IMG/VR virus record: IMGVR_UViG_3300045988_011417
Span: 1-5,732 of that record
DNA length: 5,732 nt
Source: a virus
Direction: 5' to 3' (one strand)
In this document: piece by piece, positions 1-5,732 of the stretch
Layout of the letters: every line of letters starts with the position of its first letter
Position numbering within the stretch: position 1 is the stretch's first letter
Program-made: the position numbers and the translations under genes
The notes under the pieces: model-generated
What the model was told of the DNA's origin: nothing
The model's database searches: none
Seen by the model: only the letters and a program-made list of their open reading frames with translations

Positions 1-119
1 ATTTTTTTTGTTACGTACCCTGCAACATATCTATAGGTTTCCGGTACTGCTTGCGCTATCTGTATTTGACCCATGCCCCATAGGTTTGCTAGCCATTTAC
101 TTGTGAAATATCCGTTATG
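1..119. repeat. Terminal direct repeat, left copy. It is identical to 5614..5732 and is a circular-assembly overlap, not a biological repeat.
   Basis: Base-by-base comparison: attttttttgttacgtaccctgcaacat...gaaatatccgttatg occurs at both ends. It lies inside the Rep coding frame. Confidence 0.97.
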
Positions 120-662
120 CTGTATCTTGTATAGGTGCTCTAGATCTGTTGGCTGCCATCCGTACAGTATCATATGGTAATGCGGCCTTGCTGTTTGTTC
201 TCCGTACTCTCCTGCTATAAAATAGCGTAATTTGCCCCTATAAGCCTTTCTGAGACGTTTTAAGAACTTTTGAACGTCAGTATACATTAACGTTTGGACG
301 CTTTCAGGGCGCTTCTCTCCCGGTTTCCAGACGTATTGTACTTTTCGCATGATTTCGCCTGTGTTTACTATCATACCCGGTACGTGGTCATCGTCATAAG
401 TTAATGTGATAAACCAAACTTCTTCTCTTGGATAGTCTCGTGCTTCTAATTCTATTCGTGTTGTCCAGTCCTCTCTTTGTCTGATTCTGCATCCAATGCA
501 TTGCCCGCATGGTATCAACATGACATTTTTTCTGTACATCAAATCTTCATACTTAAGTTGTTTCCCGCTTATTTCAGAAAAGCGGGCAAGTGTATACACC
601 CGCCCGCTTATGTTCTTGTCTTCCGGGTTGTACAGCCTTATTAATGGCTTGTAACAACTCAT
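1..662 (-). CDS. VP4: Replication initiation protein VP4 (HUH rolling-circle endonuclease, phiX174 gpA-like), N-terminal part. The full CDS is complement(join(5256..5613,1..662)), 339 aa.
   Basis: Hand translation from ATG 662..660 gives MSCYKPLIRLYNPEDKNISGRVYTLARFSE...MLIPCGQCIGCRIRQREDWTTRIELEA...EVWFITLTYDDDHVP...YFIAGEYGEQTARPHYHMILYGWQP...WLANLWGMGQIQ. It is open to position 1, with an upstream in-frame stop at 674..672. It carries a CxxCxxC cluster, RCR motif 1 (FITLTY) and motif 2 (HYH). The frame continues seamlessly into the 5256..5687 ORF through the 119-nt overlap. The ORF track misses it because it runs off the window edge. Confidence 0.95.
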   Translation of the reverse strand, partial: MSCYKPLIRLYNPEDKNISGRVYTLARFSEISGKQLKYEDLMYRKNVMLIPCGQCIGCRIRQREDWTTRIELEARDYPREEVWFITLTYDDDHVPGMIVNTGEIMRKVQYVWKPGEKRPESVQTLMYTDVQKFLKRLRKAYRGKLRYFIAGEYGEQTARPHYHMILYGWQPTDLEHLYKIQHNGYFTSKWLANLWGMGQIQIAQAVPETYRYVAGYVTKK

Positions 663-1522
663 TTCAAATAATCACCCGGCTTTCGTTTTTCTCCGTAGCT
701 TCCTGTTTTGTCTTGTGGCTTCATGCTTCTGCTCTGTTCTGTGCCTTTTCTTGTCTTTGCCGTTGCATCTGTAATAGCCTTGCTTGTGTCGTTTCCGACT
801 TCTGTAAGCGCTTTTTGCAGTCCGTATGGCGTCATGTGTGTTGTACTGAGCATTTGTTGCCAGCTTTGTGCTGCGTTGTACCAGTCACTTTGGCTCCAGC
901 TGCTGCTTTCGTATGCGTTAGGTACAAACCCTCCGCTTCTGCTTACTCCTAGTGCGCTGCTGCTTGCAAGTCCCATACTTGCGCCGCTGATTGTTCCCGC
1001 GCTTCCACCCGGTGTGCTTGCGCCACCATTTGCGAATGCTAAGATAGGGTTAAGCCCTGCTTTTTTCATGTCTTCAACGGCTCGCTGGTATGCTGTGCTT
1101 GACATGTGTTCTTGCCATTCACGGTTTGCAGCTGCTTCTGCACTGTTGTAGTTCATTGCTACGCTGTTTTCAATGTGGTTGTACACGCCTTGCATGATTG
1201 CTTGTAAGGTGTTGTAACCCATCTGCTTAAGCATGCTTTGACTGTTGTATTTGCCTTGCATGGCTGCTTCTTGCCCTTGGTATGCGTATGCCTGTTTTAG
1301 CCAGTCGTTTACCTGCTGAATGTTTGTGCCTGCTTGGCTTCCACTTTCAGAGTGTCCGCCGCCTTGGCTTGTGCTGCCGCCGCTACTTTGGCTATTGCCT
1401 GTTTGTCCCCATCCGCCAAACGCTCCGGCTATGTTTTTAGCTGCTCCTGCAAAAGTTCCGATTGTGTTTGCTACGTTTCCCGCTACGTTTAGTGCTGTTA
1501 AGAGTCCCGAAAATGCGCTCAT
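659..1522 (-). CDS. VP2: VP2 minor capsid / DNA pilot protein (gpH analogue), 287 aa.
   Basis: ATG at 1522..1520. The N-terminal region is Gly/Ser/Gln-rich and low in complexity. The central segment REWQEHMSSTAYQRAVEDMKKAGLNPILAF matches the conserved gokushovirus VP2 core as I recall it. It sits directly downstream of VP1. Its TGA stop (661..659) overlaps the Rep ATG (662..660) as ATGA. Confidence 0.85.
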   Translation of the reverse strand: MSAFSGLLTALNVAGNVANTIGTFAGAAKNIAGAFGGWGQTGNSQSSGGSTSQGGGHSESGSQAGTNIQQVNDWLKQAYAYQGQEAAMQGKYNSQSMLKQMGYNTLQAIMQGVYNHIENSVAMNYNSAEAAANREWQEHMSSTAYQRAVEDMKKAGLNPILAFANGGASTPGGSAGTISGASMGLASSSALGVSRSGGFVPNAYESSSWSQSDWYNAAQSWQQMLSTTHMTPYGLQKALTEVGNDTSKAITDATAKTRKGTEQSRSMKPQDKTGSYGEKRKPGDYLK

Positions 1523-1550
1523 TTAAAAATAGCCCGGGTTTTGCCCGGGC
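1523..1550 (-). terminator. Candidate intrinsic (probably leaky) terminator or attenuator between VP1 and VP2.
   Basis: The - strand reads GCCCGGG-CAAAA-CCCGGGC, a perfect 7-bp all-GC stem (1550..1544 pairing with 1538..1532) with a 5-nt loop. It is followed immediately by TATTTTTAA (1531..1523). Confidence 0.55.
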
Positions 1551-1561
1551 ATCCTCCTTTC

Positions 1562-3241
1562 TTACAGTTTATACAAGCCCGGTACGCTATACAGCGGCAT
1601 CCGTCTCGTGGTTTTGTTTGCTACGCGGATAGCTCCGAAAAATTGCGGCTCATTCTGCACGATCAATGTTCTTGCAACTTCACTCTTTCCTTCTGCCATC
1701 CATTCTTGCGATAGCGTCGGTACTTTTTCGTAGTTGTCTGCATAGTGCCAGAAATCTAGTGTCCCTTCTGCGTTGCTTCTCATGAGACCGGATACACGGT
1801 TAGGCTTCATCCGGTAGTCTGCCCATGCTTCTTGATAACCGAATGTTTCCTCATCGCTTGCTTTTCCGGTTAACATGATTTCTTTCTTTTTTACCGGTTG
1901 CTCGCCCAGATTTGCAAACTGTGGTACATAATAGTCAAGTCTGTCTTTTCTGCTCCAGAAACGTTCCAAGCCTTGTTGGTAACTGTGATTGTGTCGCACG
2001 CAACAGACACCGATTACAAAGCCGTGCTCTTCAAACGATTTGGTAAAAGAGCTTTCATTGATTGGCGTTACTGACATTGCACCGGTTTCACCGATTGGCG
2101 TGTCTTCGTTCGTCTGCTGTCCGCTGGTCTGCACAATCTGGTTGATGTTTACATGGTATCTGCCACCGCCAAGGTATTCCGGCACCTGTACGGTCTTATC
2201 CGAAATTACTACGTTCCACAGTGCCTGTACCTGTTCGCGGTATCTGCTGCCACCTCTTGCAAGTGCTTCGTAGTACTGCTGTACTGCTACGGCTTTTCTC
2301 AGGTCGTTGATGGTTGTGGCTGTTACACTGCTGAGGTCTGCGCCTAGGTATACGCTGTTTTTTCCATTTCCGGCGATTCCTTCACCCTGTAATTGTAATG
2401 GGAAAGAATTTTTTGCTGCTGCTATTGCGTTTAAGGCACCGTTTGTTTTTAACGGCGTTGTTGTTGGTCTGAAACTACTGATATATAAATCAGTTTCGTT
2501 TTCATTTGTCGAGATTCCCTGGTATGCTTTTACCGATGCATTGCCTTCCATGGGCAGCGTTACTTCCGGTCCGCGCTGAGGATAAGGCAGACAGCTTGTG
2601 AAGTAGTCATGGAATTTGTTTACTGGTAAGCATCTTCCGCCTCTTCTTGCTTGCGAAAGAGTTTTTTCCATTGTTTCGCTTTCTGGGCTTTCGTCCCAGT
2701 ATTCCACGTCTTCACTATCTGTCTTTAATACTGCTGGGTTACCTACATTTTCATCCCTAAAAAATTCATTCCATATCATGACGTATGCTCTGATGGGAAG
2801 TGCGTTGATGGAGAATTCTGCATCAACTTTTGTTGGTACTCCCATGTAGTCCAAAATACTTCCTTCTTGAGGTTTTTTAGCTTCTGTCGTGCCTTTGATT
2901 ATAATTTCTGGTATTTTGTATTCTTTTTTCGGGTTCCATGGTGTTTCATCTGCTTCTCCCATGAATCTTTTGAAATCATTCCACAAAATACGGTTAGGAC
3001 AATAGAAGTAGTAGAAGTCAATAAACGCATCGTCCATTACTGGATATTTCGGTGTGCTCATTCTGATGATTGCTGTCGTATCTACGTTGAAGGTATCGCC
3101 CGGTAATACCTCGTCAACATAGAATGGAATCAGCTTGCCGGAGTCGAACGTTGTTAAAATCGTCTGGTCACGGTTAAAGCGCGTTCGACTCGCTTTCATT
3201 TCTGGAATCTGGCTAAAATGCTGTTCATTGTTTCGATTCAC
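1562..3241 (-). CDS. VP1: VP1 major capsid protein (Microviridae F-protein fold family), 559 aa, GTG start.
   Basis: The N-terminus HFSQIPEMKASRTRFNRDQTILTTFDSGKLIPFYVDEVLPGDTF and the internal INDLRKAVAVQQYYEALARGGSRYREQVQALWNV...VPEYLGGG are hallmark Microviridae VP1 motifs. Codon 3241..3239 is GTG, not ATG. It is preceded by AAAGGAGGGAGAAAA, a strong Shine-Dalgarno site about 7 nt upstream. The next in-frame ATG (codon 15) would remove the conserved FSQIP segment. TAA stop at 1564..1562. Confidence 0.97.
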   Translation of the reverse strand: MNRNNEQHFSQIPEMKASRTRFNRDQTILTTFDSGKLIPFYVDEVLPGDTFNVDTTAIIRMSTPKYPVMDDAFIDFYYFYCPNRILWNDFKRFMGEADETPWNPKKEYKIPEIIIKGTTEAKKPQEGSILDYMGVPTKVDAEFSINALPIRAYVMIWNEFFRDENVGNPAVLKTDSEDVEYWDESPESETMEKTLSQARRGGRCLPVNKFHDYFTSCLPYPQRGPEVTLPMEGNASVKAYQGISTNENETDLYISSFRPTTTPLKTNGALNAIAAAKNSFPLQLQGEGIAGNGKNSVYLGADLSSVTATTINDLRKAVAVQQYYEALARGGSRYREQVQALWNVVISDKTVQVPEYLGGGRYHVNINQIVQTSGQQTNEDTPIGETGAMSVTPINESSFTKSFEEHGFVIGVCCVRHNHSYQQGLERFWSRKDRLDYYVPQFANLGEQPVKKKEIMLTGKASDEETFGYQEAWADYRMKPNRVSGLMRSNAEGTLDFWHYADNYEKVPTLSQEWMAEGKSEVARTLIVQNEPQFFGAIRVANKTTRRMPLYSVPGLYKL

Positions 3242-3636
3242 TTTTCTCCCTCCTTTACTTCAGGTTCTGCTGCTGGTTTTTCTGTTGCCTTTTTCTGCAG
3301 TTCTTCCAGCTTCATTGCGTTTGCCTGTGCGGTCGCGATCATGCGATGATACTCATGAATGTTCTGTGGAAATTCCGTAATATCTGTGTATGTATCGTTT
3401 AATGCTCCTTCTGACAGGCTTTTCAGAAACTGCGGGTCAAAACTTGCTTTTCGGACAATGTTTTTGATATCGCATTCATCCGAATAGCTTTCAATTTCCT
3501 GTTGGATATCGATTGGTGCAGTTTCTTGCAGTACTTCTTCTCCTTTTTCGTCTTTCGTCCAAACGTATTGTTTTCGAAGTTTTTCTCCTGATTCAGAAAA
3601 GAAGGGCTTTTGCCCTTCTTCGTATCGTTTATTCAC
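3238..3636 (-). CDS. VP3: VP3 internal scaffolding protein. The preferred start is GTG 3636..3634 (132 aa). The maximal ORF extends to ATG 3756 (172 aa).
   Basis: It lies immediately upstream of VP1, as in gokushoviruses. It is an acidic protein with ...IESYSDECDIKNIVRKASFDPQFLKSL...TDITEFPQNIHEYHRMIATAQANAMKLEE, resembling the VP3 D-x-D-I-N-x-I-V/R-x-F core. GTG 3636 is preceded by GGGAGGG with an 8-nt spacing and overlaps the upstream TAA (GTGAATAA). Its TGA stop (3240..3238) overlaps the VP1 GTG. The 40-codon extension up to 3756 lies entirely inside the upstream gene in another frame and looks like out-of-frame sequence. Confidence 0.72.
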   Translation of the reverse strand: MNKRYEEGQKPFFSESGEKLRKQYVWTKDEKGEEVLQETAPIDIQQEIESYSDECDIKNIVRKASFDPQFLKSLSEGALNDTYTDITEFPQNIHEYHRMIATAQANAMKLEELQKKATEKPAAEPEVKEGEK

Positions 3637-3868
3637 GCGGCTTGCCCTCCCATACCTTTTCTTTGTCGTTCGTGAACGTGCCAAGTTCATCTTCAAACAT
3701 TGCCAGTTTGAACCCGGTATAGTCTCCCGGTGCCTGTCCGATAAAGGTTTTTTCATCTTTCGCCATTACGTTACACATACGTGCAAAGGTTGCGCTGTTC
3801 TTGCTCTCGCCTACCCATGCGTAGCATTTTGCTACACTGTCCCATAGGCCAAAATATTCATGCTTCAT
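3629..3868 (-). CDS. Small conserved non-structural protein, VP5-like (ORF5 family of gokushoviruses), 79 aa.
   Basis: ATG 3868..3866 is preceded by AAAAGGAGAG about 9 nt upstream. The pattern F-x-x-x-D-S-V-A...N-S-A-T-F-A-R-M...A-P-G-D-Y-x-x-F-x-L-A-x-F-E-D-E-L-G-T-F matches the recalled family signature (D.ka..y..Pf....aA.R.F ... hPeDy.L..lG.fDd.tG). Its position just upstream of VP3 is canonical. Confidence 0.6.
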   Translation of the reverse strand: MKHEYFGLWDSVAKCYAWVGESKNSATFARMCNVMAKDEKTFIGQAPGDYTGFKLAMFEDELGTFTNDKEKVWEGKPRE

Positions 3869-3886
3869 GATATTTACTCTCCTTTT

Positions 3887-4009
3887 TTACAGCCGGATGC
3901 CACCGCGCATAGGTTTCTGGCTGAGGTTGATGGTTTTGGTTTTTCGTGCGGTTACGTTGAACATGCGGCGGTCTTTTGTGCCGTTCATCGTTTTACGATG
4001 TCGTGCCAT
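3887..4009 (-). CDS. Small highly basic DNA-binding/packaging protein (gokushovirus ORF8/VP8-like, functional analogue of phiX174 gpJ), 40 aa.
   Basis: It is not in the ORF track because it is too short. Hand translation gives MARHRKTMNGTKDRRMFNVTARKTKTINLSQKPMRGGIRL*, with ATG 4009..4007 and TAA 3889..3887. Roughly a third of the residues are Arg or Lys. The C-terminal PMRGGIRL matches the ending I recall as typical of this family. The Shine-Dalgarno site GAAGGGAG lies about 8 nt upstream. Confidence 0.8.
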   Translation of the reverse strand: MARHRKTMNGTKDRRMFNVTARKTKTINLSQKPMRGGIRL

Positions 4010-4238
4010 TGTTATACTCCCTTCGTATTAGTTCTAATTCAATGGCATTTGCAAAGCTTTTCATTTGCCAAATTTCATCTACCAGTCTTTTTGCATCCTC
4101 GATGTTTGACACTCTTTTAAGCATTTTGTAATTGCCATCAATTTCTTTGTATTTTCGTTCGAGTAGTTCTTCCAATGCTTCTTTGGTCTGGTCTCGTACA
4201 TTCCATGATTTCATTGCTAGTCCTTCTTTCCAGGTCAT
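3993..4238 (-). CDS. Hypothetical protein, 81 aa (or 73 aa from ATG 4214), predicted helical/coiled-coil and charged.
   Basis: The ORF is on the coding strand, packed between neighbours, and overlaps the next gene by 17 nt. ATG 4238 has no Shine-Dalgarno site. The internal ATG 4214..4212 is preceded by AAGAAGGA with a 6-nt spacing, so the shorter form is more likely. I recognise no motif. Confidence 0.5.
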   Translation of the reverse strand: MTWKEGLAMKSWNVRDQTKEALEELLERKYKEIDGNYKMLKRVSNIEDAKRLVDEIWQMKSFANAIELELIRREYNNGTTS

Positions 4239-4249
4239 TTGTCATTCAT

Positions 4250-4354
4250 TCACTGCCTGTCGTGCAGCACGTGATAAATCTCGTCTAGTTTTTCCAAGAT
4301 TTGTCGCATAACTGCGATTGCGGCCTTGAGGTCTTTAATGCTGATAAGTGCCAT
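4250..4354 (-). CDS. Candidate micro-ORF, 34 aa (MALISIKDLKAAIAVMRQILEKLDEIYHVLHDRQ), amphipathic helix, unknown function.
   Basis: It is below the ORF-track cutoff. ATG 4354..4352 lies 2 nt after the peptidase TAA stop and is preceded by AAAGGGGGTG 7-8 nt upstream. It fills an otherwise unexplained 118-nt gap on the coding strand. TGA stop at 4252..4250. Confidence 0.35.
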   Translation of the reverse strand: MALISIKDLKAAIAVMRQILEKLDEIYHVLHDRQ

Positions 4355-4356
4355 TT

Positions 4357-4746
4357 TTACACCCCCTTTCTGTATTTGCTGGTGCGTACATCGAAGTGCA
4401 CCCAACTTTTGTATACGATAATGCCGCATTCATCCGGTACGATTTCATTCAGTTTATTGGCAAGTTCTTTTGGACTTATTCCATTAACCCGGATGTCTGC
4501 TGCCATACCGCGCATGTGATAGCTGTATTTTGCTCCGCCGCATTTTGCGTTCCATTCTGGTGTTCTGTATCCGCTGGTGATGATTACTGGCTTTCCTATT
4601 TTATGCCGGAGGATGTCTAGAACGGTGTATAGGTAGTCGTCTATGAATACTACTTGACTGCCGTCTTTGCAAGCAAACTCTTTTACTTTGAAGTGTCTTG
4701 CCAGCTTTGTGTTTCCGTCTGTGTCCATGATATAGCTTTTGATCAT
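4357..4746 (-). CDS. Zinc D-Ala-D-Ala carboxypeptidase-fold peptidase, family M15 (Peptidase_M15_3 / LAS type). It is an endolysin-type cell-wall hydrolase of 129 aa from ATG 4746.
   Basis: The motifs are HFKVKEFACKDGS, SGYRTPEWN, GGAKYSYHMRGMAADI (the S-x-H-x-x-G-x-A-x-D zinc site) and WVHFDV (the distal His). Its size is similar to small phage LAS endolysins. The ORF track begins at 4755, but that codon is TTG, only 1 nt after the AAGGAG box. ATG 4746..4744 has AAGGAG 10 nt upstream, so I call that start. Confidence 0.88.
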   Translation of the reverse strand: MIKSYIMDTDGNTKLARHFKVKEFACKDGSQVVFIDDYLYTVLDILRHKIGKPVIITSGYRTPEWNAKCGGAKYSYHMRGMAADIRVNGISPKELANKLNEIVPDECGIIVYKSWVHFDVRTSKYRKGV

Positions 4747-4818
4747 TTCCGTCAAGCTCCTTACATCGAGTATTTTGATTGATATATCAGCAGTCGGTTT
4801 TGCTCCTTTGTTTTGAAT

Positions 4819-4832
4819 GGCGCTTTAGCGCC
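4819..4832. repeat. Mini-hairpin GGCGC-TTTA-GCGCC. It contains the 10-mer CGCTTTAGCG, which recurs at 5026..5035.
   Basis: Perfect 5-bp inverted repeat with a 4-nt loop, read directly. A second copy of the 10-mer lies on the other side of the iteron array. Confidence 0.5.
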
Positions 4833-4891
4833 TTGCCGTGCGTAGCGTATGCGGAGCTCGGCTAATCCATTCCTTTTTAGCGCTGTGCGCG

Positions 4892-4929
4892 TTTTCAACA
4901 CTTTCAACACTTTCAACAGGTTTTCAACA
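4892..4929. repeat. Iteron cluster 1: four direct copies of TTTCAACA.
   Basis: Perfect 8-mers at 4893..4900, 4902..4909, 4911..4918 and 4922..4929, spaced 9, 9 and 11 bp apart. Confidence 0.92.
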
Positions 4930-4964
4930 AAATGTTGCACAATGATTTTCGTTATTTTGACGAA

Positions 4965-5004
4965 GTTTCAACAATTCAACAAGTTTTCAACAAAACTTTC
5001 AACA
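4965..5004. repeat. Iteron cluster 2: three perfect copies and one imperfect copy of TTTCAACA, in direct orientation.
   Basis: Perfect 8-mers at 4966..4973, 4985..4992 and 4997..5004. An imperfect ATTCAACA is at 4974..4981. Spacing is 8, 11 and 12 bp. The orientation is the same as in cluster 1. Confidence 0.92.
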
Positions 5005-5024
5005 GTGTTTTTTGCTTTTTATTT

Positions 5025-5036
5025 ACGCTTTAGCGT
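5025..5036. repeat. Mini-hairpin ACGC-TTTA-GCGT, the second copy of CGCTTTAGCG.
   Basis: 4-bp inverted repeat with the same TTTA loop. It is embedded in the near-palindrome TTTACGC-TTTA-GCGTTAAA. Confidence 0.45.
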
Positions 5037-5103
5037 TAAATTTTAGTACTTATCAACTTTTCCACCACCTCTACTACTACTCCTACAACAAGTTAATATT
5101 ATA

Positions 5104-5149
5104 TCGCGCGTGCGCGCGTGCGCGCAATCGCGCGTGTGCGCACGCGCGA
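5104..5149. promoter_or_regulatory. Long GC-rich imperfect inverted repeat (hairpin/cruciform) made of two alternating pyrimidine-purine tracts. Candidate origin or structural control element.
   Basis: 5104..5115 pairs perfectly with 5138..5149 (12 bp). On the + strand, 5116..5124 pairs with 5129..5137 (6 Watson-Crick pairs and 3 G-T pairs). The loop is CAAT (5125..5128). Tracts 5105..5125 and 5129..5148 are perfectly alternating Py-Pu. The flanks are AT-rich. Confidence 0.8.
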
Positions 5150-5204
5150 ATTGGATTATTTTATAGACTGAATAGGTTGATACATGGAGTCTTTAAACGA
5201 CAAT

Positions 5205-5236
5205 AGCTCAGTACCTTACTTGATAGGTACTGGGCT
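5205..5236 (-). terminator. Hairpin about 20 nt downstream of the Rep stop. Weak candidate transcription terminator or structural element.
   Basis: AGCTCAGTACCT (5205..5216) pairs with AGGTACTGGGCT (5225..5236) around an 8-nt loop. That is 11 Watson-Crick pairs plus one non-Watson-Crick position (T-G on the + strand, A-C on the - strand). The 3' flank on the - strand is ATTGTCGTTTAAAGA, which is not a canonical U-tract. Confidence 0.3.
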
Positions 5237-5255
5237 AGGTGACACCATGACACTG

Positions 5256-5732
5256 TTAAAGTGTCCCTTTCTTCTTCATCTGCTTCTTTATTACCCTCTC
5301 TTTCGTTTTGCACTGTTCTGCAAAGTCTGCATTTTCGTACTTTAGTCGGTTTTCTGCTATGGCTGCTGCTTGTCTGTTCTGTTTAATTCTCCACAACCTT
5401 TGTGGGTTTTCTGCTTCCATCATTTTTTCATAATAACGTGGAATTTGTGCGTGTTTGCCGTTTGTGCATTGGATATATCCTTGCCTCCAGATTTCTGCTT
5501 TGTGTTCTTGATAGTAGTGGTCTCCCAGACCTGGTTTAAGGCTCATACATGCAAAAGGTTTTTGTTGTCCTAGTTCGTAATATACGTTTGCTTTTTGACT
5601 GTCTATCTCATACATTTTTTTTGTTACGTACCCTGCAACATATCTATAGGTTTCCGGTACTGCTTGCGCTATCTGTATTTGACCCATGCCCCATAGGTTT
5701 GCTAGCCATTTACTTGTGAAATATCCGTTATG
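5256..5732 (-). CDS. VP4: Replication initiation protein VP4, C-terminal part. Positions 5614..5732 duplicate 1..119.
   Basis: The translation ...GMGQIQIAQAVPETYRYVAGYVTKKMYEID... contains RCR motif 3, Y-V-A-G-Y-V-T-K-K. This has two Tyr residues separated by three residues, as in phiX174 gpA (YVAKYVNKK). The tail is basic. TAA stop at 5258..5256. The Met at 5687 used by the ORF track is internal. Confidence 0.95.
   Translation of the reverse strand, partial: HNGYFTSKWLANLWGMGQIQIAQAVPETYRYVAGYVTKKMYEIDSQKANVYYELGQQKPFACMSLKPGLGDHYYQEHKAEIWRQGYIQCTNGKHAQIPRYYEKMMEAENPQRLWRIKQNRQAAAIAENRLKYENADFAEQCKTKERVIKKQMKKKGTL
5614..5732. repeat. Terminal direct repeat, right copy (duplicate of 1..119).
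   Basis: Exact 119-nt identity with the window start. Confidence 0.97.

Follow-up and report, generated by a model that had tools for sequence, protein, structure and literature searches.

DnaA-trios, as defined in PMC10797057 and PMC8287927, belong to the basal unwinding system (BUS) of bacterial chromosome origins. The rule by which a BUS is searched for asks for a species-specific DnaA box, often in tandem, a first trio within 16 bp (most commonly 13), a GC-rich gap of about 4 bp on average, and at least three 3'-NAN-5' trios, 3'-GAT-5' being preferred (PMC8287927). In the incC region of Bacillus subtilis, the proximal boxes lie beside the trios, and a distal set of boxes is needed for origin function (PMC6669920). 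The present study deals with a 5,732-nt stretch of viral DNA (IMG/VR record IMGVR_UViG_3300045988_011417, positions 1 to 5,732; "the window" hereafter means this whole stretch), which is the genome of a gokushovirus and carries two clusters of the direct repeat TTTCAACA in a non-coding region. The best explanation, which is likely on balance, is that these repeats are DnaA boxes of the Oscillospirales type, set in a 213-nt miniature of the host unwinding module, and that host DnaA would bind there and open the replicative form of the phage.

Textbook microvirus replication uses a host polymerase and a rolling circle nicked by Rep, with no role for a cellular initiator. Other mobile elements do recruit the host initiator via clustered DnaA boxes. 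The origins of pSC101, P1, F and RK2 use such boxes, which they pair with the 17–22-bp iterons of their own initiator; we know of no box-plus-trio unwinding geometry described for them. In T5-like phages, a bioinformatic proposal (bioRxiv 10.1101/866236) places an oriC-like cluster of DnaA boxes, "reminiscent of oriC", at the injection-stop region and gives it a non-replicative role; its abstract does not mention a box-plus-trio unwinding geometry. This is the nearest phage precedent found.

The repeat TTTCAACA occurs seven times exactly in the window, always on the plus strand (starts at 4893, 4902, 4911, 4922, 4966, 4985 and 4997), and a single copy with 7 matches out of 8, ATTCAACA, starts at 4974 on the same strand; the array spans 4893-5004. 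In 200 dinucleotide shuffles of the window, the mean number of exact copies is 0.38 and the maximum 3, so that none reaches 7. The start-to-start distances are 9, 9 and 11 nt in the first group and 8, 11 and 12 nt in the second, and Tandem Repeats Finder gives 2.9 exact copies of a 9-nt unit at 4893-4918. The array lies in the sole large non-coding stretch (4756-5255), from the VP4 stop codon to the endolysin start. A preliminary description of the window, made from its letters alone, had reported the array itself: seven perfect copies and one 7/8 copy in one orientation, two groups of four with 8–12-nt spacing, an exact 9-nt tandem of the first three, and a location in the only large non-coding region of a microvirus. 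The degenerate copies that it mentioned are also present (TATCAACT at 5051-5058 and CTACAACA at 5083-5090), as is the partial inverted copy TGTTGCAC at 4933-4940, but the spacer between the groups measures 36 nt (4930-4965) rather than 35.

The same repeat is found in bacterial chromosomes. One genome per bacterial or archaeal species was scanned for three copies of TTTCAACA spaced 0–4 nt apart, which gave at least 120 loci (counts from the genome and viral scans are lower bounds). Judging from record titles, about 46 among the 120 matches listed come from Oscillospiraceae, Ruminococcus/Ruminococcaceae, Acutalibacteraceae and unclassified Clostridia/Eubacteriales; dnaA adjoins the array in 10 among these 120, and none of them encodes VP1 or VP4. 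Ruminococcus albus (L143) is one of the species with such arrays. In L124 and L190, the neighbours of the array are DnaA (TIGR00362, 498 and 471 bits) and the beta clamp DnaN (TIGR00663), both at equivalog level, which places these arrays in a classical dnaA-dnaN origin of Firmicutes. In eight dnaA-dnaN intergenic regions from Oscillospiraceae and Ruminococcus, the top 8-mer is TTTCAACA/TGTTGAAA (110 copies), TTTCCACA is a minority form (19 copies, 15%), and the canonical box TTATCCACA occurs once. At its fifth position, the motif has A and C in a proportion of 110:19 in the hosts and 80:15 in the phages, and the flank preferences are similar.

The recognition helix of the host DnaA differs from that of the model proteins. 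In the DnaA of L109, L114, L124, L151, L162 and L190 and of L137, L139 and L206, its sequence is RDHSTIVY(A/S), with RDHSTMTT in three of these proteins, where Aquifex, B. subtilis and E. coli have RDHTTV(I/L)HA. In E. coli numbering, the changes fall at 435, 438 and 439, which are among the helix-5 residues making base-specific contacts (PMC5043019). Because TTTTCAACA dominates the dnaA-dnaN origins and the helix is altered, the simplest reading is that it is the DnaA box of these bacteria, in which box specificity seems to have undergone a lineage-specific change. The repeats of the window are very probably DnaA boxes of this host type. The preliminary description had noticed a resemblance to a relaxed DnaA box with one mismatch; the resemblance holds but was understated, since the repeat is not a mismatched E. 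coli box but an exact match to the origin repeat of Oscillospiraceae and Ruminococcus, followed by a full module of box, spacer, trios and AT-rich DNA. The parts of this module, with their putative functions, are the following.

4891..5103, plus strand: whole invertible cassette, oriC-like, with the distal boxes at one end and the AT-rich stretch at the other (delimited by blastn breakpoints; collinear with host oriC cores)
4893..4929, plus strand: distal DnaA-box cluster I, four copies of TTTCAACA, the fourth being TTTCCACA in several relatives
4930..4965, plus strand: inter-cluster spacer, with the degenerate inverted box TGTTGCAC and a small palindrome TTCGTTATTTTGACGAA (4948-4964)
4966..5004, plus strand: distal DnaA-box cluster II (TTTCAACA, ATTCAACA, TTTCAACA, TTTCAACA), which aligns column for column with host TTTTCAAC-TTTTCAACAAGTTTTCAACA
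5005..5049, plus strand: AT-rich linker with a weak hairpin, from distal to proximal boxes (DNA fold −3.3 kcal/mol, z −1.3)
5050..5066, plus strand: proximal tandem DnaA boxes TTATCAACT and TTTTCCACC; most relatives have TTTTCAACtTTTCCACa, hosts TTTTCAACAgTTTCAACA or TTTTCCACA
5067..5070, plus strand: spacer ACCT, which separates the proximal box from the first trio and is 4 nt long, like that of the hosts (CCCC, GCCC or TACC)
5071..5085, minus strand: DnaA-trios, CTA CTA CTA CTC CTA on the plus strand, i.e., 3'-GAT GAT GAT GAG GAT-5' on the minus strand (CTACTACTACTCCTA); hosts have CTACTACTACTACTA
5086..5095, plus strand: invariant, phage-specific CAACAAGTTA at the junction of trios and AT-rich DNA, 98% conserved
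5093..5103, no strand assigned: short AT-rich stretch TTAATATTATA (or GTTAATATTATAT, 5092-5103), presumed unwinding element, which varies in sequence and length between relatives

In sequence, this arrangement agrees with the BUS rule. The species-specific box would be TTTCAACA/TTTCCACA, for a host that is itself predicted. The two proximal boxes end at 5058 and 5066 and the trios start at 5071, hence at distances of 12 nt and 4 nt. Five 3'-NAN-5' trios, of which four are 3'-GAT-5', run 3' to 5' away from the boxes, and the two clusters of four distal boxes lie 45–180 nt upstream of the proximal ones. A search for CTACTACTAC with at most one mismatch gave 5 matches in the window, against 0.14 expected, and three of them overlap at 5071-5085. 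After the trios, the window reads CAACAAGTTAATATTATAT.

In the incC region of B. subtilis (proximal DnaA-box#6/7), the elements follow one another as in the phage: distal clusters come first, then the proximal boxes in tandem, some 4 bp of gap, three or more 3'-GAT-5' trios and AT-rich DNA, whose phage counterpart is a short, presumed unwinding element. Unlike incC, the phage module sits in a 5.6-kb single-stranded DNA (ssDNA) phage and not beside dnaA, measures about 213 nt, occurs in either orientation, has a very short AT-rich part, carries CAACAAGTTA after the trios, and uses the box TTTTCAACA instead of TTATCCACA.

The origins of Oscillospiraceae and Ruminococcus (L109, L114, L124, L162, L190) share with the phage cassette the 8-mer, the frequency of its variant, the 4-nt spacer, the CTACTACTAC trios and the orientation of the boxes relative to the trios. 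They also have a hairpin before the proximal boxes, as the relatives of the window do at the position of its linker, in a different sequence. Phage cassettes and host origin cores are collinear, with 68–72% identity over about 200 nt (one row with wrong coordinates was left out of each of the two alignments), and the host origins end with ...TTTTCAACAgTTTCAACA-cccc-CTACTACTACTACTA, then AT-rich DNA. The host origins differ by their size (450–1250 nt), by their 5–26 boxes in both orientations, with true inverted boxes TGTTGAAAA between the clusters, by longer AT-rich tracts and by the absence of a flanking GC hairpin; CAACAAGTTA has no counterpart in the host origins compared. The phage cassette is probably a working unwinding module.

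The 213-nt cassette is present in at least about 150 related microvirus contigs, whose VP4 is 37–100% identical to that of the window. The first ten relatives in GenBank (75–87% nucleotide identity; from human, pig and monkey faeces) all have both clusters in the same place. The clusters are also found in every GenBank relative examined whose VP4 is at least 46% identical, including genomes at 46–56%, in nearly all of the 80 IMG/VR relatives whose DNA covers the intergenic region, and in 75 further IMG/VR microviruses with VP4 identity down to 37%. Across these relatives the 8-mer is constant, while the copy number varies and TTTCAACA is occasionally replaced by TTTCCACA. The conservation on which the preliminary description had made its reading depend extends over this whole range of VP4 identity. 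The repeats and the box-plus-trio module were not found in Chp2, phiMH2K and SpV4, nor in two relatives at 35% VP4 identity; the cassette is therefore specific to a clade and not general to Gokushovirinae. One relative whose VP4 is 95% identical (L020, an 8.8-kb contig) has no cassette, its sequence being unrelated from position 4111, right after the equivalent of window position 5157 and just before the GC hairpin. A chimeric assembly, or else an insertion, is the probable cause, and this contig is therefore uninformative.

The comparison of 135 unique (non-identical) phage cassettes, with the window base as reference, shows where the sequence is kept. Identity amounts to 93.5% in the distal boxes, 82.5% in the proximal boxes, 92% in the trios and 98% in CAACAAGTTA, compared to 70% in the rest, a sign of selection on the motifs. 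In 121 of the 135, exactly 4 nt separate the proximal box from the first trio, while the sequence of this gap is free (TTGC, ACCT, CTCC, GCCT and others). Each of the 135 carries an uninterrupted run of 3 to 7 trios, in most cases 3 or 5.

The orientation of the cassette is variable. The repeats lie on the opposite strand relative to VP4 in L004, L021, L043, L052, L067, L077 and L080, and blastn comparisons with six inverted relatives place the breakpoints at window positions 4891 and 5103 (4892 and 5099 in one locus). A recognisable core was also seen in 67 additional microviruses, of which 50 show the window-type orientation and 17 the inverse one. The unit which inverts comprises the repeats together with TTTTCAACTTTTCCAC, CTACTACTACTCC, CAACAAGTTA and the AT-rich end. 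A promoter, a gene or a strand-specific single-strand signal is hard to reconcile with this variability, which an element made of duplex DNA would fit; it suits an autonomous double-stranded unit that would work in either gene orientation.

The inversion bears on the proposal, made in the preliminary description, that the repeats are an operator array over an early promoter. A promoter scan gave 3 promoter-like sites in 700 nt, against 1.1 expected, and the only one that touches the repeats is a weak match (TTGAAA-18-AATCAT, 9/12); together, the promoter and terminator scans gave weak matches only. A promoter of fixed direction inside the cassette is disfavoured because inversion would reverse it, and the operator was abandoned as the main function. 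In a broader version, the boxes would be a decoy or a sensor: they would titrate the host initiator on multicopy replicative forms and thereby prevent initiation on the host chromosome, or DnaA would regulate transcription of the endolysin and structural genes according to the replication state of the host. DnaA is a known transcription factor, the evidence for host-type boxes applies equally to this version, the endolysin gene has the array 137–250 nt upstream of it, and the 9/12 match overlaps cluster II on the coding strand; a non-replicative role is likewise proposed for the cluster of T5-like phages. However, a decoy or sensor needs boxes only, which leaves the trios, the strict 4-nt spacing and the AT-rich stretch, all conserved over a deep divergence, without explanation. 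Moreover, on inversion the boxes are displaced over as much as 200 nt and face the other way with respect to the downstream genes, at no apparent cost. This role is therefore considered unlikely.

The collinearity with host origins would also be expected of a non-functional passenger, that is, host origin DNA captured once by illegitimate recombination. Yet the cassette is kept in genomes of 5.6 kb under strong size constraint while VP4 falls from 100 to 37% identity, its conservation is motif-specific (93% versus 70%), and the length of the spacer is conserved. The repeats could otherwise belong to a small unannotated gene, as other annotators marked small hypothetical open reading frames (ORFs) there in some relatives. 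Two small ORFs overlap the repeats in the window, at 4940..4761 (minus strand, 59 aa) and 4849..5046 (plus strand, 65 aa), and neither has a Pfam or PHROG match. The ORFs cross the breakpoint at 4891 or lie in the segment that flips, so that inversion disrupts both, and the small-gene reading was rejected. Taken together, a passenger or a small gene is hardly credible.

Two hairpins outside the invertible unit have to be considered in addition to the cassette.

5204..5237, plus strand: conserved hairpin with a 13-bp stem and the loop TTACTTGATA, followed by AGGTGACACC; candidate VP4 nick site (fold −10.9 kcal/mol, z −4.6)
5104..5149, no strand assigned: GC-rich, near-perfect hairpin with 21-nt arms, in the flank of the cassette (DNA fold −29.5 kcal/mol, z −3.3)

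The hairpin at 5204-5237 sits just downstream of VP4. Its stems covary and its loop is kept in distant relatives (L098, L100, L003). The origins of the phiX174 type are a 30-nt site in gene A, CAACTTG^ATATTAATAAC, and we know of no DnaA boxes or trios at the phiX origin. The loop of L100 is CAACTTGATA, which we take to be the first ten bases of the phiX174 origin, so that the likeness to the phiX174 nick region belongs to this hairpin loop and not to the repeats. Chp2 (L338, around 2900-2945) has a hairpin of the same design on the coding strand, where GTGATAGC comes after the loop TCTACTTGATC. When the cassette flips, the hairpin of the window clade stays as it is: among 81 cases, the two are on the same strand in 70 and on opposite strands in 11. 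From its sequence and conservation, this hairpin is the probable true nick site of VP4.

In the clade of the window, the genes and the ACTTGATA motif are on opposite strands. This implies that the packaged strand may be antisense in this clade, unlike that of all characterised Microviridae. Strand composition was tried as a clue to the packaged strand and set aside: the coding strand has 37% A and 19% T, but that of phiMH2K is likewise A-rich, and A-richness is therefore not diagnostic.

Two other candidates in the region were rejected. The resemblance of CAACAAGTTA to phiX CAACTTGATA had made it a possible VP4 nick site, and it was demoted because the covarying hairpin loop matches phiX better. 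A dif/XerCD-like site seen by eye at 5085-5115 was dropped, as its AT-rich part is too variable between relatives. A near-copy of CAACAAGTTA, TTCAACAAGTT, lies within box cluster II at 4975-4985.

The presence of a candidate nick hairpin in the same non-coding region gives some sense to another proposal of the preliminary description, in which the repeats are iterons for VP4 (or for a small phage protein) and form the binding part of a rolling-circle double-strand origin. HUH replicons often join a nick-site hairpin with direct repeats; the Rep iterons of pMV158 (RepB), geminiviruses and CRESS-DNA viruses are such short clusters near the rolling-circle origin of a replicon with an HUH initiator. 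CAAC is, moreover, presumably common to the repeats, CAACAAGTTA and the phiX174 origin CAACTTGATA. However, Rep iterons are Rep-specific, co-vary with Rep and sit close to the nick hairpin. The phage 8-mer is unchanged when VP4 falls to 37% identity, which speaks for a binding partner that is conserved and probably cellular, and against iterons specific to Rep. The same 8-mer and its minor variant occur at the same frequency in host origins, and VP4 is absent from the 120 chromosomal loci listed. The repeats lie about 200 nt from the nick-like hairpin, with the GC hairpin in between, and flip relative to it in 11 of 81 cases, which further reduces the likelihood that VP4 binds them. The classic gokushoviruses Chp2, phiMH2K and SpV4 have a homologous VP4 without the repeats, and the ORFs of the window include no extra DNA-binding replication protein. 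VP4 iterons are thus very unlikely. An iteron origin of the theta-plasmid type (RepA, Pi or TrfA) was also rejected, as the sole replication protein is the HUH protein VP4 and the repeat unit is 8–9 bp instead of about 17–22 bp.

The strand that carries the nick motif raises another alternative, namely a complementary-strand origin. The cassette would recruit DnaA, DnaD or a primosome on ssDNA and so prime synthesis of the second strand, by analogy with the 'A site' of the ABC primosome, a hairpin with a DnaA box, or with DnaD on the TnnT strand. Priming on the single strand requires a site in every microvirus, and we know of none described for gokushoviruses. In the window-type orientation, the strand with the phiX-like ACTTGATA loop also bears 5'-CTACTACTACT-3', the type of strand, opposite to the trios, to which DnaD binds in B. 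subtilis (PMC13220808). On the other hand, DnaA boxes are bound only as duplex and the repeats are all direct; the repeat region folds like its shuffles on both strands (z +0.29 and −0.04). Both orientations are tolerated, relative to the hairpin (70 versus 11) and to the genes (50 versus 17). The GC hairpin at 5104-5149 would be a better candidate for single-strand priming. A complementary-strand role is thus improbable, and the primosome version of the DnaA-box proposal in the preliminary description is likewise not favoured, given the lack of folding and the flipping of the cassette relative to the genes and the nick hairpin.

This GC hairpin is present in the relatives too, with a variable sequence; in some (L001, L003, L007) there are two copies of it or further GC-rich palindromes beside it. 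It may serve as a signal for single-strand priming or as a recombination substrate in the inversion of the cassette.

The host-type unwinding module remains the best explanation, in view of the identity of the repeat with that of the hosts, the shared architecture and geometry, the conservation focused on the motifs, and the independence from VP4 divergence and from orientation. It would work as follows. Once the incoming single strand is converted into the double-stranded replicative form, the distal boxes would collect host DnaA-ATP. DnaA would seed on the proximal boxes and polymerise along the trio strand (the minus strand of the window), and the adjacent AT-rich DNA would melt. The opened region would start or assist phage replication with the host machinery. 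What follows unwinding is held with less confidence than either the nature of the boxes or the function of the module. Most likely, the host replicative helicase would be loaded, leading to theta-type amplification or to the maintenance of the replicative form. In addition, VP4 could be helped to a single-stranded substrate, or the neighbouring hairpins could be extruded.

Several points weigh against this explanation. The status of TTTCAACA as the host DnaA box is deduced from its position, abundance and geometry, and the host of the phage solely from the motif. An AT-rich stretch follows the trios in all relatives, but at about 11–18 nt it is shorter than the unwinding elements of the hosts, and the window type runs into the stable GC hairpin. 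Most phages space the proximal boxes by 8 nt, where the hosts have 9, and the upstream box lacks the final A. The invariant CAACAAGTTA, which has no host counterpart, falls outside the model. In B. subtilis, autonomous origin function also needs the box clusters upstream of dnaA, which suggests that the 213-nt cassette may not be a self-sufficient replicator. Finally, a need for DnaA is unexpected because rolling-circle replication by their own HUH protein is presumably sufficient for microviruses.

A bolder version can be formulated, to which we give a small but real chance. In this version, a large clade of uncultured gut gokushoviruses would have captured the core of a host origin, and its replicative form would be a DnaA-dependent mini-chromosome which replicates in theta mode, is coupled to the cell cycle and persists in a plasmid-like carrier state in Oscillospirales. 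Rolling-circle replication by VP4 from the ACTTGATA hairpin would then serve only to produce the single strands of the progeny.

The terminal 119 nt are identical (window 1-119 and 5614-5732), which shows that the window covers a circular genome of 5613 nt in full. Its genes all lie on the minus strand: VP1 (Phage_F), VP2, VP4, a peptidase M15 endolysin, VP5, VP3 (Chlamy_scaf) and two small ORFs without family match. VP4 is an HUH initiator of 339 aa (PF23343), whose gene spans the ends of the window. The assignment to the gokushoviruses is based on this gene set (VP1–VP5, with VP4 of the HUH type). Scans of the window for tRNA and Rfam families gave nothing relevant.

Between the cassette and the endolysin gene, the block 4796-4890 is non-coding and about as conserved as coding DNA in close relatives. 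It contains a hairpin GGCGCTTTAGCGCC (4819-4832), with GCCGTGCG...GAGCTCGGCTAATCCATTCC; a promoter for the downstream genes is a possibility. In L001, L007, L008 and L009, this interval holds an extra 300–500 nt, absent from the window, in which hypothetical ORFs of 79–133 aa are annotated. The interval between endolysin and cassette is thus a hotspot of gain and loss.

Arrays of TTTCAACA were also seen elsewhere. Larger viral contigs that are not microviruses carry dense arrays (L288, an IMG/VR contig of 39 kb, and L277, L279, L291, L300 and L317); L288 has the full core, box-cccc-CTACTACTA-AT-rich, while 38 boxes lie within 1 kb of L300. The use of such arrays may thus extend to other mobile elements of these hosts. 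Arrays of 10–11 copies of TTTCAACA occur in Thermotogota (Mesoaciditoga/Athalassotoga metagenome assemblies L134, L168, L175 and L210).

The module of DnaA boxes and trios is, as such, already known. In the open-access full-text literature, no report was found of the use of DnaA, oriC or iterons by microviruses, Microviridae or gokushoviruses, in agreement with the remark of the preliminary description that such repeats are not a described feature of Microviridae. What appears to be new is a compact, invertible cassette of this kind in an ssDNA phage with an HUH initiator, the host-specific variant of the box, and the host prediction that results from it.

The cassette predicts Oscillospiraceae/Ruminococcaceae, from sequence, as hosts of uncultured phages that have so far been unassigned. 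It also draws attention to a non-canonical DnaA box, TTTTCAACA, which is paired with an altered DnaA recognition helix in important gut anaerobes. As a natural minimal origin of 213 nt, it would be a substrate for the study of the box-spacer-trio model, for which the inversions and the spacer variants form a natural mutational series. If the explanation proposed here is true, it would add a DnaA-dependent step to the replication of an abundant clade of gokushoviruses from the human and animal gut, and would suggest a route to plasmid-like persistence.

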